The notes under the pieces: model-generated | Told to the model about the DNA's origin: nothing | The model's input: the letters and a program-made list of their open reading frames with translations, nothing else | Database searches by the model: none | Position numbers and translations under genes: made by a program | In this document: piece by piece, positions 1-3,411 of the stretch | Layout of the letters: the number at the start of each line of letters is the position of its first letter | Numbering within the stretch: position 1 is the stretch's first letter | Source: a virus | Lineage: Duplodnaviria > Heunggongvirae > Uroviricota > Caudoviricetes | Strand: one strand, 5' to 3' | Virus record (IMG/VR): IMGVR_UViG_2877953467_000001 | DNA: 3,411 bases

Positions 1-996
1 TTATGGACGCATTATGGACATTTCTGACACCGGGTTAAGAGTCACAGCATCTTGTAAGAAATCCGGTGCAAAGTGTGCGTAGGTCATAGTTTGCTGAATG
101 TTAGAATGACCCAGGATGCGCTGCAATGTGATTATGTTACCTCCATTCATTATAAAATGTGTGGCAAATGTATGCCTCAAAACATGCACTGCCTGTCCGT
201 CAGGTAAATCGGGTTTTACTTCCCTGAGAGCGTTGCGCACTTTGTAGTAACTGGCATTAAAAAGCCTGCCTGAGTTTTTGGTCTTGATCCGTTTAATCAG
301 GTCCTGCGAAACGGGAATTGTCCTGCGCTTTCCGTTTTTAGTTTTCATAAACGTAACCATCTGGTTAATGATGTGTTCAGCTTTTAAATTAGACACTTCA
401 CTCCAGCGTCCACCAGTAGAAAGGCAGACCAGAGTCGCATTTAATTCATCACCATCGAGCATGGATAACAGCCGTGTAATCTCTTCACTGGACAAAAAAG
501 CCATTTCTGTAACAGCTTCACGTAATCGCTTAACCTCACGGAACGGGTTGTGAGAATGGTATTCACCGGCGTCAATTAACTTGGTGAACATCCCGCTCAT
601 TATTGCCAGATGCCGATTTACGCTGGCTGGTTTTAGACCATCGTTCATCATTACAACGCGATAATCAGTTATCGTTTTCTTTGTTAGCTGGTCAGCTCTG
701 GACACTCCCATTTCTGCAAATTTGGCGATTATTGTCGTCAAACGCCCCCGTTCAATATCTCCACGCTCATGTGATTTTCCGTGATATATCCACCATCTGC
801 CTAACAACTCTGTAAGAGTTCGGCGGTCGGCTGGCTTCTCCAGCCACTCTTTGTTGTGGTAGTTAACCAGTACATGACGTTCGAATGCTTGAGCTTCACC
901 TTTAGTTTTAAATTTCCGCCTGATACGTTTTCCATCTGCACCCTGCGGTCTGACGTCCACTTCATAACGACCATCATCGAGCTTTTTAATAGACAT
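1..996 (-). CDS. int: Phage integrase, tyrosine recombinase (P2-family Int), complete 331 aa
   Basis: Full-length minus-strand ORF with ATG at 996-994 and TAA at 3-1. The N-terminus MSIKKLDDGRYEVDVRP...GKRIRRKF is the P2/186-type arm-binding start. The C-terminal catalytic region has LSTGGRWSEV (Arg), HVLRHTFATHF (His-x-x-Arg), GHSNIQQTMTYAHF (Tyr nucleophile). A GGAGGG Shine-Dalgarno (rc of 1001-1006) sits 4 nt upstream of the ATG. Family assignment is from motif recognition, not a search. Confidence 0.92.
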   Translation of the reverse strand: MSIKKLDDGRYEVDVRPQGADGKRIRRKFKTKGEAQAFERHVLVNYHNKEWLEKPADRRTLTELLGRWWIYHGKSHERGDIERGRLTTIIAKFAEMGVSRADQLTKKTITDYRVVMMNDGLKPASVNRHLAIMSGMFTKLIDAGEYHSHNPFREVKRLREAVTEMAFLSSEEITRLLSMLDGDELNATLVCLSTGGRWSEVSNLKAEHIINQMVTFMKTKNGKRRTIPVSQDLIKRIKTKNSGRLFNASYYKVRNALREVKPDLPDGQAVHVLRHTFATHFIMNGGNIITLQRILGHSNIQQTMTYAHFAPDFLQDAVTLNPVSEMSIMRP

Positions 997-1089: not shown

Positions 1090-1401
1090 TCAGCCAGTCT
1101 TTTGGTCTGAGTGGTGCAAGGTTGTTGAGTCTTGCCCAATGTGCGCGAGCGCCGGGGCTATTTGTCCGCCAGCGGGATCAGTTTCATCAAACATGAACCA
1201 GTCACGGTACTTGCGAAATCTTTCTGGCTTGAAAAATTTCATGCCTGCGTCAAAAGACATCTTTACTTTTCCCTGCTCATATCCAGCATAGGTGTTGTAG
1301 TTAATTCCAGTTAATTCAGCAACTTGCTTCCTTGTCATTCTTTCTGACTCCCGAATAAGTGCGAGTTTCTCTGCTTGAGATGTGATTTGTGTATTTGACA
1401 T
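1090..1401 (-). CDS. C: Immunity repressor, P2 C-type (short HTH repressor), 103 aa
   Basis: First ATG of the minus-strand ORF is at 1401-1399, giving MSNTQITSQAEKLALIRESERMTRKQVAELTGINYNTYAGYEQG... ending ...GQIAPALAHIGQDSTTLHHSDQKTG. The N-terminal MSNT start, the HTH segment (RKQVAELTGINYNTYAGYE) and the C-terminal GQIAPALAH...QKTG tail match my recollection of P2 C. The 119-aa version in the ORF track needs a TTG start and is not favoured. It sits directly upstream of int on the same strand, as in P2. Confidence 0.85.
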   Translation of the reverse strand: MSNTQITSQAEKLALIRESERMTRKQVAELTGINYNTYAGYEQGKVKMSFDAGMKFFKPERFRKYRDWFMFDETDPAGGQIAPALAHIGQDSTTLHHSDQKTG

Positions 1402-1505
1402 GAATTGTCGTATCTCGTAATTTATGTTGCATGCGACACGCCAGAACAACGCAGAGCGGCTTCAAATAGCTCTGGTTGAATGGCACCAAAGTTGAGGATA
1501 TCAAA
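1402..1505. promoter_or_regulatory. Lysis/lysogeny switch region between divergent C and cox (expected face-to-face Pc/Pe promoters and repressor operators)
   Basis: 104-bp gap between divergently oriented C (minus) and cox (plus). A perfect TTGACA lies at 1395-1400 on the plus strand, overlapping the C start codon, with a weak -10 candidate TAATTT at 1418-1423 (17-bp spacer). Direct repeat TCGTA at 1408-1412 and 1415-1419. Imperfect 14-bp palindrome tgttgcatgcgaca at 1425-1438 (one mismatched pair). GAGGA Shine-Dalgarno for cox at 1493-1497. Promoter and operator assignments are tentative. Confidence 0.45.
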
Positions 1506-1862
1506 ATGAGTATTGGATCAGAAATGAATAACGATGTTGGAGAAAAAGTATCTGATCTCACAAAAAGTAAAAAATGTGACATCAAACTTGCAGCCGCACC
1601 GTCGGATTTGCTCTCGAAAGAGGGATTTGCTCTTTACATCGGTAAGACGCCTCGTGCTGTTGCTGAAATGGCGAAAGCAGGCAAGTTACCAGCCTTTTAT
1701 ATGACGGACCCATTAAAGCCGGGCGGTCATGCTGAGTTATGGATTAATCGCCGTGAGTGGGACAGGTACGCAGCCCAACTAGTTGATGAAGCTCCGACAG
1801 AATGGCATGACTGGAAAAATCGCATTAGTTACAGCAAATCAAGACATGGCCGTGCGGCTTAA
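1506..1862 (+). CDS. cox: Cox-like protein (excisionase / early-operon regulator of P2 family), 118 aa with extended N-terminus
   Basis: ATG at 1506 preceded by GAGGA (1493-1497); stop TAA at 1860-1862. The core FALYIGKTPRAVAEMAKAGKLPAFYMTDPLKPGGHAELWINRREW resembles the P2 Cox core as I recall it (...LIGKSTGAVRRMIDKGKLPVIDMTDP...). First gene transcribed away from C, as expected for cox/apl. Start could instead be ATG 1524. The TTG at 1476 used by the ORF track is unlikely. Confidence 0.75.
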   Translation: MSIGSEMNNDVGEKVSDLTKSKKCDIKLAAAPSDLLSKEGFALYIGKTPRAVAEMAKAGKLPAFYMTDPLKPGGHAELWINRREWDRYAAQLVDEAPTEWHDWKNRISYSKSRHGRAA

Positions 1863-1872
1863 GGTGGAAAGG

Positions 1873-2043
1873 ATGAACGAGCCTCGTTGTATTGCTCAGC
1901 TATTGCGTAATGAAAGCCCCAGGGCGATTGACTTCACCATCACCCACGGTAAGGGGCGTAAGGGAATCATTATCCGCACCAAAAAACAGAGTCCGTTAAA
2001 GAAGGCTCTGACCTTTCTGAAAAGCCGGAGGGTATGGAAATGA
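1873..2043 (+). CDS. Small basic hypothetical protein, 56 aa, in the position of P2 orf78
   Basis: ATG at 1873 follows an AAGGTGG/GGAAAGG Shine-Dalgarno (1861-1871) 10 nt after the cox stop. Product MNEPRCIAQLLRNESPRAIDFTITHGKGRKGIIIRTKKQSPLKKALTFLKSRRVWK is lysine/arginine-rich. Stop TGA 2041-2043 overlaps the next start (ATGA). The 86-aa extension in the ORF track overlaps cox and is not favoured. No function recognisable from sequence. Confidence 0.55.
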   Translation: MNEPRCIAQLLRNESPRAIDFTITHGKGRKGIIIRTKKQSPLKKALTFLKSRRVWK

Positions 2044-2540
2044 CAGTGATGACGCTCAATCTCGTTGAAAAACAGCCAGCAGCTATGCGCCGGATAATTG
2101 GTAAGCATCTTGCCGTTCCTCGCTGGCAGGATACATGTGATTATTATAATCAGATGATGGAGCGCGAACGGTTAACGGTTTGCTTCCATGCTCAGTTAAA
2201 ACAGCGTCACGCAACGATGCGTTTTGAAGAAATGAACGACGTCGAACGTGAACGACTGGTATGTGCAATTGATGAATTGCGTGGTGCATTCTCAAAACGC
2301 CGTCAGGTTGGCGCAAGTGAGTATGCATATATTAGTTTTTTAACAGTCAGTCAGCGTCGTACTTTATTTATGCATGCCGGATTGACTGAAAAAGAATTCA
2401 ACCAGCCATACTGGCGAATTAATGAAGAGTCATGTTACTGGCGTGATGCTTTATTCCGTGCATTACGTGAATTATTCAGTCTATTTGAGTATGCACCGAC
2501 AATTCTGACGTCGGTAAAACCAGAGCAATATCTGCATTAA
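2040..2540 (+). CDS. B: P2 gpB-like replication protein (lagging-strand synthesis / helicase-loading factor), 166 aa
   Basis: ATG at 2040 with GGAGG at 2027-2031 (8-nt spacer); stop TAA 2538-2540. Product MTVMTLNLVEKQPAAMRRIIGKHLAVPRWQDTCDYYNQMMERERL...EYAPTILTSVKPEQYLH has the length and sequence character of P2 gpB as I recall it, and the correct position after cox and the small ORF. ATG 2034 is in frame but too close to the Shine-Dalgarno. Confidence 0.8.
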   Translation: MTVMTLNLVEKQPAAMRRIIGKHLAVPRWQDTCDYYNQMMERERLTVCFHAQLKQRHATMRFEEMNDVERERLVCAIDELRGAFSKRRQVGASEYAYISFLTVSQRRTLFMHAGLTEKEFNQPYWRINEESCYWRDALFRALRELFSLFEYAPTILTSVKPEQYLH

Positions 2541-3130: not shown

Positions 3131-3342
3131 TGCCGGACAACATAGATTTTATTCAGGAACAACAGGCTGAATTACTGGAGCGCCAGATTAACGCGGCAAG
3201 GGTAAAACATTGCGGTGCTTCTGCGCTGGTTTGCGAAGAGTGTGACGCGCCAATACCTGCTGCCCGTCGTGCGGCTTATCCGTCAGCCACGCGTTGTGTT
3301 TCCTGTCAGGCAGTCTTTGAAGCAAAAAACANNNNNNNNNNN
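3130..3342 (+). CDS. TraR/DksA-family C4 zinc-finger protein (P2 orf82-like); 3' end falls in or just beyond the N-run
   Basis: ATG at 3130 with AAAGGAA at 3117-3123. The first 67 residues are MPDNIDFIQEQQAELLERQINAARVKHCGASALVCEECDAPIPAARRAAYPSATRCVSCQAVFEAKN. They contain CEEC, 17 residues, then CVSC, the CxxC-x17-CxxC pattern of DksA/TraR zinc fingers. The ORF runs into the N-run at 3332-3342, so the true stop and C-terminus cannot be read. The in-frame continuation to 3411 in the ORF track is not trustworthy. Confidence 0.7.
3332..3342. other. Run of 11 ambiguous bases (assembly gap or masked sequence)
   Basis: Literal n characters at 3332-3342. True length of the missing sequence is unknown, so reading frame across it is undefined. 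Confidence 0.95.
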
Positions 3343-3411
3343 ACAATTAGATATCAAAAAATGTCACCAATAACTGACATTGCGGTGTTTCTCCAGATGT
3401 GGCCCATCTGA

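Follow-up and report, generated by a model that had tools for sequence, protein, structure and literature searches.

[quoted passage not shown] Footprinting of P2 C gave four protected sites, one of them downstream of O2, and the mapped Pc of W-phi gives a transcript overlap of 82 nt (both PMC1904263). The cox boxes of P2 are phased at 10-11 bp, and P2 targets have at least six of them (PMC3936717).

The window, by which we mean the whole stretch of 3,411 nucleotides that was analysed, corresponds to the int / C / cox / B part of a common E. coli prophage of the P2-like (Peduovirus) type, and its positions 1395-1505 are the lysis/lysogeny control region, an ordinary one of its kind. Of 5426 complete E. 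coli genomes, 233 (about 4%) carried the immunity module, which was also present in the phages pro147 and S164; the immunity class is widespread and unstudied, and it is a new member within the known P2-type switches. The reading we favor, to which we assign a probability of roughly 0.7, is that of a P2-like switch of a class other than those of P2 and W-phi, in which the early promoter Pe would lie at 1395-1423, C would act on the half-sites O1 and O2, possibly together with O3, and a convergent Pc and a set of Cox repeats would complete the circuit.

Genes of the module and the early promoter

The features on which this part of the analysis is based are as follows.

1090-1401, minus strand: C immunity repressor gene (open reading frame; 103 aa, helix-turn-helix protein of the P2 C family)
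1506-1862, plus strand: cox gene (118 aa; PGAP start identical)
1395-1400, plus strand: Pe -35 hexamer TTGACA, overlapping the C start codon (1399-1401)
1418-1423, plus strand: Pe -10 hexamer TAATTT, exactly 17 bp after the -35, with a predicted start near 1430
1412-1416, minus strand: GAGAT, the probable Shine-Dalgarno sequence of C (ATCTC on the plus strand)

The order int-C / cox-orf78-B agrees between P2 and the window according to the ORF layout and related phage records, with cox opening the early operon, divergent from C, and int downstream of C. The C protein matched the P2 C entries in PDB (2XCJ/2L49) over residues 9-103 with E = 4.7e-24 by phmmer and also gave a Pfam HTH_3 match, and its identity in alignment was 47% to P2 C and 41% to W-phi C. 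The start codon of C is the CAT at 1399-1401 (ATG on the minus strand), for which the PGAP start was identical in L007, L008 and L172, and the protein carries a four-codon N-terminal insertion peculiar to its own class. Cox was matched by the Pfam family Phage_Cox (PF10743) with E = 3.2e-29 at residues 26-106 and by the PDB entry of P2 Cox (4LHF) with E = 1.7e-6, and its N-terminus is extended by about 25-30 aa in a class-specific manner. The protein cluster names for the window proteins gave generic annotations only. The spacer between C and cox is 104 bp. Conservation within the class was assessed by comparing 24 haplotypes; the ungapped polymorphism density of cox was inflated by two indel haplotypes (L056 and L057), and its figure is left out here.

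The preliminary description of this DNA had proposed a Pe whose -35 overlaps the C start codon, and the placement is well supported. When the C-cox interval was scanned with a sigma-70 PWM, the proposed pair ranked first on the plus strand with a score of 12.0 in comparison to 6.5 for the runner-up, and its layout is that of the annotated P2 Pe: the -35 positions are identical, and the P2 -10 likewise lies at 17 bp. TTGACA was invariant in all immunity types compared and in 24 of 24 haplotypes of the class, and TTGACA(T/C) was found at the C start of about 40 C-type loci from many genera, from Escherichia to Aeromonas. A hexamer of the TAnnnT type lies exactly 17 bp from the -35 in P2, DAX4, E92, W-phi and L058, while D8 has AATTAT, and TAATTT was invariant among the haplotypes of the class. 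From this promoter the early genes (cox, the orf78-like gene, B and onward) would be transcribed rightward, starting near 1430. A plain consensus promoter scan overlooked Pe, because TAATTT matches at only 3 of 6 positions, and reported nothing between C and cox. GAGAT would probably be the Shine-Dalgarno sequence of C, although the 10 nt to the ATG are rather long; the corresponding (A/G)ATCTC block is common to the window, P2, D8, E92, L099 and L107.

Candidate operators of C

The candidate half-sites, all of the form TGTYGYAT, and the segment next to them are listed below.

1406-1413, plus strand: O1 candidate half-site TGTCGTAT, in the Pe spacer; invariant in the class
1425-1432, plus strand: O2 candidate half-site TGTTGCAT (TGTTGTAT in the majority allele), over the Pe start site
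1431-1438, minus strand: O3 candidate half-site TGTCGCAT, inverted, abutting O2; invariant in the class
1439-1458, no strand: unconstrained spacer from the C-operator/Pe block to the Cox-side block; 5 of 20 positions polymorphic

The likely binding sites of C are, judged from sequence comparison, the members of this set, which is a better candidate than the repeats that were proposed earlier. O1 and O2 are 19 bp apart centre to centre on either side of the -10, and they are identical at 6 of 8 positions in the allele of the window and at 7 of 8 with C1430T, the allele found in 14 of the 24 haplotypes. In an unbiased repeat scan over offsets 6-23 and spacings 9-39 they were the best 8-mer direct-repeat pair (offset 11, spacing 19), with shuffle P values of 0.0098 (allele of the window) and 0.0012 (majority allele). 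An automated repeat search of 1330-1560 had returned no direct-repeat family, since copies that agree at only 6/8 positions escaped it; O1/O2 came out in the later Hamming scan. Three exact matches to TGTYGYAT were present in the window, all of them within 1406-1438, in comparison to 0.82 expected window-wide, and the trio was the sole cluster of at least three sites in the pro147 genome (32.7 kb), even with one mismatch allowed; the consensus and the 19-bp geometry behind these counts were set after inspecting the data. Within the class, 1 of 44 positions was polymorphic in 1395-1438 in comparison to the 5 of 20 in 1439-1458, and the latter fraction also differed from that of the remainder of 1395-1505, 3 of 91 (Fisher p = 0.0046).

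Based on this arrangement, the 103-aa C, a helix-turn-helix dimer of the P2 C family, would most likely shut Pe through the direct half-sites O1 and O2, and the bound protein would occlude RNA polymerase at the promoter. The spacing of 19 bp corresponds to 1.8 turns and is unlike the reported 22, 26 and 34 bp. The third, inverted copy O3 is placed like the fourth site protected by P2 C, which lies downstream of O2 (PMC1904263).

The preliminary description had looked for the operators in the direct repeats TCGTA at 1408-1412 and 1415-1419 and in the near-palindrome tgttgcatgcgaca at 1425-1438, which is symmetric at 6 of 7 pairs, so that C would bind the tandem TCGTA, a symmetric operator TGTTGCATGCGACA, or both. 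Both were found where that description had placed them, as were the two promoter hexamers and the C start codon; the repeats and the near-palindrome lie on either side of the -10 or overlap it. No haplotype of the class varies in either TCGTA copy or in 1431-1438, the P2 C dimer is similar to the palindrome binders P22 c2 and 434 (PMC2995052), and one C dimer would be accommodated by a pseudo-palindrome of 14 bp whose arm centres are 9 bp apart. However, when the 104-bp spacer was shuffled with its dinucleotides preserved, 30% of the shuffles had a 5-mer repeated exactly and directly within 10 bp (P = 0.30), and 15% had a palindrome of 14 bp in which 6 or more of the 7 pairs were symmetric (P = 0.15), so that neither element is remarkable alone. 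The second TCGTA lies in CTCGTAAT, within the block (A/T)TCTCGTAAT, which contains the Pe -10 together with the likely C Shine-Dalgarno sequence and is common to the other immunity types L058, DAX4 and L098, and this copy therefore cannot be class-specific. In addition, the first TCGTA reads TCATA in L058 although the recognition helix is identical there, the core GCATGC of the near-palindrome is broken to GTATGC by the majority allele C1430T, and the 7-bp spacing of the TCGTA copies fits no known C operator. Binding of C in this form is thus unlikely. What stays of the proposal is the first TCGTA, which lies inside O1 (TG-TCGTA-T), and the two halves of the near-palindrome, the left one being O2 and the right one the inverted copy O3; what drops out is the second TCGTA, which belongs to the shared block, and the symmetry of the palindrome core, which is broken by C1430T.

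The same segment can also be read as a long inverted repeat formed by TGTCGTAT (1406-1413) and ATGCGACA (1431-1438), which would be a site for two head-to-head C dimers or a hairpin in the C mRNA leader controlling C translation, the 3' arm ending 4 nt before the AUG. Of the 8 positions, 7 pair between the arms, which have the -10 at their centre and do not vary within the class. In L058 a G to A substitution on the left is matched by C to T on the right, one compensatory change, but both outer pairs are lost there. The distance of 25 bp between the arms is beyond the reach of a single helix-turn-helix dimer, and the trend in the family is toward direct repeats at 19 bp. As for the RNA form, the putative C leader folded no better than shuffles, with z values of -1.4 for this leader and -1.2 for the other, neither significant in comparison to shuffles, and all that was retained in its minimum-energy fold was a stem of 5 bp closing a loop of 20 nt. 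On balance we consider an inverted-repeat function in either form quite improbable. The DNA form is compatible with the main model, where O1 and O3 are both half-sites.

A further pair of repeats, 35 bp apart and alike at 8 of 10 positions, has its first copy within the class-peculiar four-codon insertion at the N-terminus of C and could provide C half-sites on either side of the -35, an arrangement for which P2 Hy dis offers a precedent (PMC1904268). The first copy is not kept in L058 (TAGCTCTGTT), where the recognition helix is identical, the 35-bp spacing at that position was absent from the related classes compared, and position 1382 is polymorphic in one haplotype of the class, which makes half-sites of this kind very improbable indeed.

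For the reading of O1 and O2 as direct half-sites, the related immunity classes offer a comparison. The same repeat geometry was the top repeat in 9 of 13 classes of the C subfamily defined by the helix xNYxTYxGYE, in comparison to about 3% expected per class, and the sequence of the repeat differs by class (TTGCTA, AATC, TACGT, TATAAGA and TATYGAG). No good repeat in the 19-bp geometry was found in four related classes (DAX4/YpM117, L092, L147 and L095). A common repeat core goes with an equal recognition helix for the window and L058, for E92 and L108, and for L100 and L103. The strict rule that the same helix means the same repeat was rejected, and the relationship is only a trend, because L095 has the recognition helix of D8 and a different downstream repeat. 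L058 has the same helix 3 and departs completely from the sequence of the window from about 1437; the middle position differs there in all three TGTYGYAT copies, indicating either that the specificity was shifted or that this position is not read.

The geometry also invites a more far-reaching interpretation, namely a mixed operator in which the direct half-sites O1 and O2, at 19 bp or 1.8 turns, are combined with the inverted O3, so that one C dimer would bind symmetrically in the manner of 434 or P22 and the other asymmetrically. The C of this class would then be intermediate between the palindrome binders and the P2 C family, and the 19-bp rule would be ancestral for the Enterobacterales C subfamily. 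We regard this as a doubtful though conceivable extension of the main reading.

Candidate Pc and the Cox side

Two features are proposed to the right of the unconstrained spacer.

1459-1477, plus strand: candidate Cox boxes GCTTCAAAT and GCTCTGGTT, two direct repeats phased at 10 bp
1495-1523, minus strand: candidate Pc, with the -35 TTCTGA (1523 to 1518), a 17-bp spacer and the extended -10 TGaTATCCT (1503 to 1495); predicted start near 1488

No strong consensus promoter for Pc was found in the region. The combination of TGaTATCCT and TTCTGA is the best candidate, though an unproven one, and it gave the best minus-strand PWM match with a score of 7.1 in comparison to 6.8 for the mapped P2 Pc. 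The pattern ATTTCWGAT...TTTGMTATYCTC is kept in 8 immunity classes, but this conservation is ambiguous, because the candidate overlaps the cox ribosome-binding site and the conserved codons 5-6 and coding constraint is possible. A placement at the position homologous to that of P2 (38-41 nt upstream of the cox ATG) was considered and rejected as the main candidate: the hexamers TATTTG / TGAAGC make a poor -10 there, and the hexamers TAGAGT / TAAAGT of DAX4 and L058 are not conserved in the class of the window. C and int would be transcribed leftward from a convergent Pc located to the right of Pe, for which TGaTATCCT is the best candidate.

Cox bound to the 10-bp-phased repeats at 1459-1477 would probably repress Pc. 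Equivalent GGCTCTAGAT / GGCTCCAGTT repeats occur in the same place in D8, DAX4, E92, L092, L093 and L095, which have the DNA-binding part of Cox in common. The repeats of the window obey the phasing rule of 10-11 bp, but there are two copies only, and no match to the P2 cox-box consensus TTAAA(G/C)NC(A/C) was found in the window. They lie downstream of the candidate Pc start, whereas the P2 boxes cover the -10 and the -35.

With concrete candidates for the operator and for Pc, it may be possible to predict homo- and heteroimmunity from sequence for this class and to build reporter or induction constructs. The class would also add a further data point for a symmetric helix-turn-helix dimer that reads direct repeats, while the general picture of how a P2-type switch works would be unchanged.

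Comparison with described switches

P2 (class I) is similar to the window in that C and Cox are homologous and the -35 lies over the C ATG; the convergent Pc, the two direct 8-bp half-sites flanking the -10 and an extra protection downstream of O2 in P2 have their counterparts in the candidate Pc and the candidate sites of the window. The candidate half-site is TGTYGYAT in the window in comparison to GTTTAGAT in P2, for which no match with one mismatch or fewer was found anywhere in the window, and the spacing is 19 bp in comparison to 22 bp. The recognition helix has Y/T/A/G/K in the window where P2 has Y31/T33/S35/Y36/R41, and Cox has 118 aa with the N-terminal extension in comparison to 91 aa in P2. 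In addition, the window has no TATAAT at the P2 Pc position and P2-type cox boxes (TTAAAG/CNCA) are missing. Its operator and recognition helix would place the window outside P2 immunity class I.

In W-phi (class III) C likewise binds direct repeats flanking the Pe -10, and the Pc start given by the 82-nt overlap fits an extended -10 TGtTACCCT near the cox start, in the style of the window's candidate (TGnTAnCCT). The W-phi half-sites are 10 bp long (TATTGGTGAC) and 34 bp apart, and none was found in the switch region of the window; a single perfect copy of TATTGGTGAC lies at 3363-3372 on the minus strand, in the attR tail. The W-phi -35 follows the C ATG whereas that of the window overlaps it, the spacer is 152 bp in W-phi in comparison to 104 bp, and W-phi Cox has 90 aa. 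The window would thus also lie outside immunity class III. The earlier proposal of a P2-like switch with a repressor of non-P2 specificity agrees with the presence of a C homologue and with the P2 and W-phi operators being missing from the switch region.

The pR/pL switch of phage 186 (CI, Apl, CII) has its lytic and lysogenic promoters facing each other, as is proposed for the window, and, like the window, an excisionase/repressor of the Cox/Apl family with a dual role, but 186 CI, at about 190 aa, is twice the size, is unrelated in sequence and binds inverted repeats, and 186 has cII. The repressor of the window is the 103-aa P2 C homologue, and no cII-like ORF was found between cox and B. 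The PhiECO5 prophage of E. coli UTI89, which represents immunity class IX (Nilsson et al. 2011), was rejected as a match since its proteins differ, being a 113-aa helix-turn-helix protein and a 173-aa Cox-family protein.

The sister classes with the 118-aa type of Cox (phage D8/12W/pro483 type, E. coli E92 type and the type of Yersinia phage vB_YpM_117 and E. coli DAX4) have their own recognition helix and their own repeated 8-mer, with TTGCTA in D8 and AATC in E92, and the first 30 or so residues of their Cox are class-specific. D8 and E92 have direct repeats at +11 and +30 relative to the -35, and the DAX4 type is without a clear 19-bp repeat. In these sister classes the C-terminal half of C and the DNA-binding part of Cox are near-identical to those of the window, the spacer is 93-104 bp, and the Cox-box-like repeats GGCTCTAGWT and the block TTTGMTATYCTC at the cox start are common with the window.

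Gene content and distribution of the C-cox module

The genes called in the window are as follows.

1-996, minus strand: tyrosine integrase (ORF call)
1090-1401, minus strand: C, the immunity repressor, a 103-aa helix-turn-helix protein matching the solved P2 C protein (E = 4.7e-24)
1506-1862, plus strand: Cox-family protein of 118 aa (Pfam Phage_Cox, E = 3.2e-29; P2 Cox, 4LHF, E = 1.7e-6)
plus strand: orf78-like ORF
2034-2540, plus strand: gpB homologue
plus strand: homologues of P2 orf80-82

The C-cox module was at least 99% identical in phage pro147 and in the 'P2' entry OU784746, and 98.6% identical in S164. It is carried by 233 of 5426 complete E. coli genomes, and the exact C protein is on record in more than 1000 contigs, so the window represents a common P2-like (Peduovirus) prophage. 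E. coli GF31 (NZ_CP172152) matched positions 1090-1870 at 100%, and its prophage (L172 3451-3884) is a remnant in which a truncated gene B abuts a truncated tail gene; since gene B is intact in the window, the window does not derive from GF31.

At 3332-3411 there are 12 N followed by 68 bases which do not continue the orf82-like ORF and which match the ogr-pflB intergenic junction at the other prophage end (attR side), indicating that the window joins both prophage ends over a gap or masked stretch. Part of this tail was present in 5425 of the 5426 E. coli genomes and its full length in only 394, about the number matching the C-cox module (395). The tail also holds, at 3363-3372 (minus strand), all 10 bp of the half-site TATTGGTGAC of the W-phi C operator without a mismatch; about 0.007 chance matches are expected in window-sized DNA, and this lone copy, which has no partner repeat, is probably a coincidence. 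At the extreme 3' end of int, the direct repeat TTATGGAC (1-8 and 12-19, 11 bp apart) is similar to tgTGGaCa, the arm-site consensus of P2-type Int (Nilsson et al. 2011), and both copies are likely to be arm-binding sites for Int in the att region. [quoted passage not shown]

The predicted early promoter Pe and the candidate C operators

The preliminary description had placed the rightward early promoter Pe across the C start, and its reading was accurate: TTGACA (1395-1400) overlaps the C start codon (CAT, 1399-1401) and is followed, after a 17-bp spacer, by TAATTT (1418-1423). A sigma-70 PWM scan and the alignment with P2 agree on this placement of the predicted Pe, which was the best match of the C-cox interval by a wide margin (12.0 vs 6.5 for the next). 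The same architecture is found in the P2 RefSeq annotation, where the -35 TTGACA lies over the C start codon, the -10 lies exactly 17 bp downstream, and the operators O1/O2 are GTTTAGAT twice, 22 bp apart, one on each side of the -10. TTGACAT was unchanged in all six aligned immunity types, and a -10-like hexamer stands 17 bp past the -35 in every type (TAGTAT, AATTAT, TATTCT, TATTTT, TATATT). TTGACA(T/C) was present at the C start in about 40 C-type loci of Escherichia, Yersinia, Serratia, Proteus, Erwinia, Klebsiella, Aeromonas and others, and positions 1395-1429 were invariant within the immunity class (24 distinct haplotypes, 49 loci). The P2 Pe was mapped experimentally by primer extension (PMC1904263), and by homology to it the Pe assignment is well supported at the level of sequence.

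For operators, all 8-mer pairs at offsets 6-23 from the -35 and spacings 9-39 were scanned; the P2 and W-phi repeats, used as positive controls, were both found again by our repeat scan. The best pair in the window by this unbiased scan had offset 11 and spacing 19, and the consensus TGTYGYAT has three exact matches in the window, giving the following candidate half-sites.

1406-1413, plus strand: O1, TGTCGTAT, from the best-pair scan
1425-1432, plus strand: O2, TGTTGCAT, from the best-pair scan
1431-1438, minus strand: O3, TGTCGCAT, the third TGTYGYAT match, abutting O2

O1 and O2 are identical at 6 of 8 positions in the window allele (probability of at least 6/8 in the 19-bp geometry, 0.0098 in shuffles). 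The commonest class allele has T at 1430 (14/24 haplotypes), by which O2 becomes TGTTGTAT and matches O1 at 7/8 positions (0.0012 in shuffles). Nowhere else in pro147 (32.7 kb) do three TGTYGYAT sites occur within 40 bp, even with one mismatch. Four patches were protected in the P2 C footprint, at O1, in the spacer, at O2 and some 12 nt downstream of O2, and were read as four C monomers (PMC1904263); O3 coincides in position with the fourth of them.

These candidates retain part of the earlier operator proposal, which had named two TCGTA repeats (1408-1412 and 1415-1419) and a 14-bp near-palindrome TGTTGCATGCGACA (1425-1438), all correctly located. Dinucleotide shuffling of the 104-bp spacer gave a direct 5-mer repeat within 10 bp in 30% of cases and a 14-bp palindrome with at least 6/7 pairs in 15%. 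The first TCGTA copy is the core of O1, whereas the second lies within CTCGTAAT, which includes the -10 and is present also in the heteroimmune DAX4, L098 and L058; the near-palindrome consists of O2 and the inverted O3, and the majority allele at 1430 leaves its GCATGC centre unconserved. ATCTC, which reads GAGAT on the strand of C, adjoins CTCGTAAT and is kept even in P2; it probably serves as the ribosome-binding site for C.

Within the class, 1 of 44 positions was polymorphic at 1395-1438, 5 of 20 at 1439-1458 and 2 of 47 at 1459-1505 (1439-1458 vs the rest, Fisher p = 0.0046). Locus L058, whose C protein is 83% identical to that of the window with an identical helix 3, showed only seven DNA differences over 1395-1436 (~83% identical) and complete divergence beyond 1436 up to the Cox-side block. 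Its versions of the three half-site copies are TGTCATAT, TGTTCTAT and caTCACAT, in which the TGT and AT ends are mostly retained and the fifth position is altered in all three.

Several further observations concern this interval. In the D8-type class (L003, L060-L090), a common C/T polymorphism in the O2 repeat (TTGCTA or TTGTTA) aligns with C1430T of the window's class, and a C/T transition in O2 seems to be tolerated in two classes. In S164 (L001, ON239131; ~1905-1925, corresponding to window 1411-1415), five bases, TATCT, are missing between the -35 and -10, leaving a Pe spacer of 12 bp instead of 17, an incomplete O1 and no putative C Shine-Dalgarno; either Pe is dead and the prophage locked, or the record, which is marked 'partial genome', contains a sequencing error. 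Two alternatives are unlikely: folding did not support a hairpin in the RNA of the C leader formed by 1431-1438 and 1406-1413 (z = -1.4), and a pair of the P2 Hy dis type on either side of the -35 (1383-1392, 1418-1427) is not kept in L058.

The Cox side and a candidate leftward promoter Pc

Two 10-bp-phased repeats lie on the Cox side of the spacer.

1459-1467: first repeat, GCTTCAAAT
1469-1477: second repeat, GCTCTGGTT

Their counterparts in sister classes with the same Cox DNA-binding part are GGCTCTAGAT / GGCTCCAGTT. The phasing is like that of the P2 cox boxes, which are phased at 10-11 bp over Pc (PMC3936717); no match to the P2 cox-box consensus was found here. The inverted repeat CAGAGC-N11-GCTCTG (1452-1457 / 1469-1474) spans the first Cox-box-like repeat and is the main stem in predicted folds of both leaders, which were no better than shuffles.

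The window has no good promoter at the site that corresponds to P2 Pc. On the minus strand, the best candidate consists of TTCTGA (1523..1518), a 17-bp spacer and TATCCT (1500..1495) with TG at 1503..1502, and it scored 7.1 in comparison to 6.8 for the mapped P2 Pc by the same matrix. W-phi Pe/Pc transcripts overlap by 82 nt (PMC1904263), and the Pc start deduced from this overlap adjoins TGtTACCCT in locus L010, an extended -10 of the same style as the window's candidate, for which the predicted overlap is about 58 nt in comparison to about 35 nt in P2 and 82 nt in W-phi. A block ATTTCWGAT-N-TTTGMTATYCTC is kept in eight immunity classes with an otherwise variable Cox N-terminus, and since the cox ribosome-binding site and codons 5-6 fall in the same stretch, its conservation is ambiguous. 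We give the TTCTGA/TATCCT candidate roughly even odds at best of being Pc.

Within Cox residues 1-30 (1506-1595), the first 25-30 lie outside the Pfam Cox domain match (residues 26-106) and vary between immunity classes, the remaining protein being nearly identical; inside the class this segment is near-invariant, position 1521 alone varying. The N-terminal extension may serve class-specific recognition or interaction.

The 19-bp geometry and known C classes

In 9 of the 13 distinct classes that belong to the window's C subfamily (recognition region xNYxTYxGYE), the best repeat pair had a spacing of exactly 19 bp and offsets of 7-12, a geometry taken by the top pair of shuffles about 3% of the time.

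Repeat words of C classes
D8: TTGCTA
E92 and L108: AATC
L093: TACGT
L099: TATAAGA
L100 and L103: TATYGAG

Classes with the same recognition helix tend to have a common repeat core (window/L058, E92/L108, L100/L103), with the exception of L095, whose helix is that of D8 and whose downstream repeat differs. A good 19-bp repeat was not found in DAX4/YpM117, L092 and L147.

The switch belongs to the family of P2-type C/Cox switches. With P2 and W-phi it is not homoimmune, since it contains the operator words of neither phage and its C has other recognition residues, and among the published classes compared (P2, W-phi and class IX) its class is not the same as UTI89 class IX either. The result is an ordinary regulatory region rightly recognised, plus a refined, testable operator proposal with a 19-bp spacing rule for one subfamily. 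According to Karlsson et al. 2006, as cited in a passage of PMC2995052, all seven classes apparently recognise direct repeats. P2-type C repressors bind two direct repeats whose sequence, length, spacing and position depend on the class, and up to 2007 experiments had located the operators of three classes only (PMC1904268). [quoted passage not shown]
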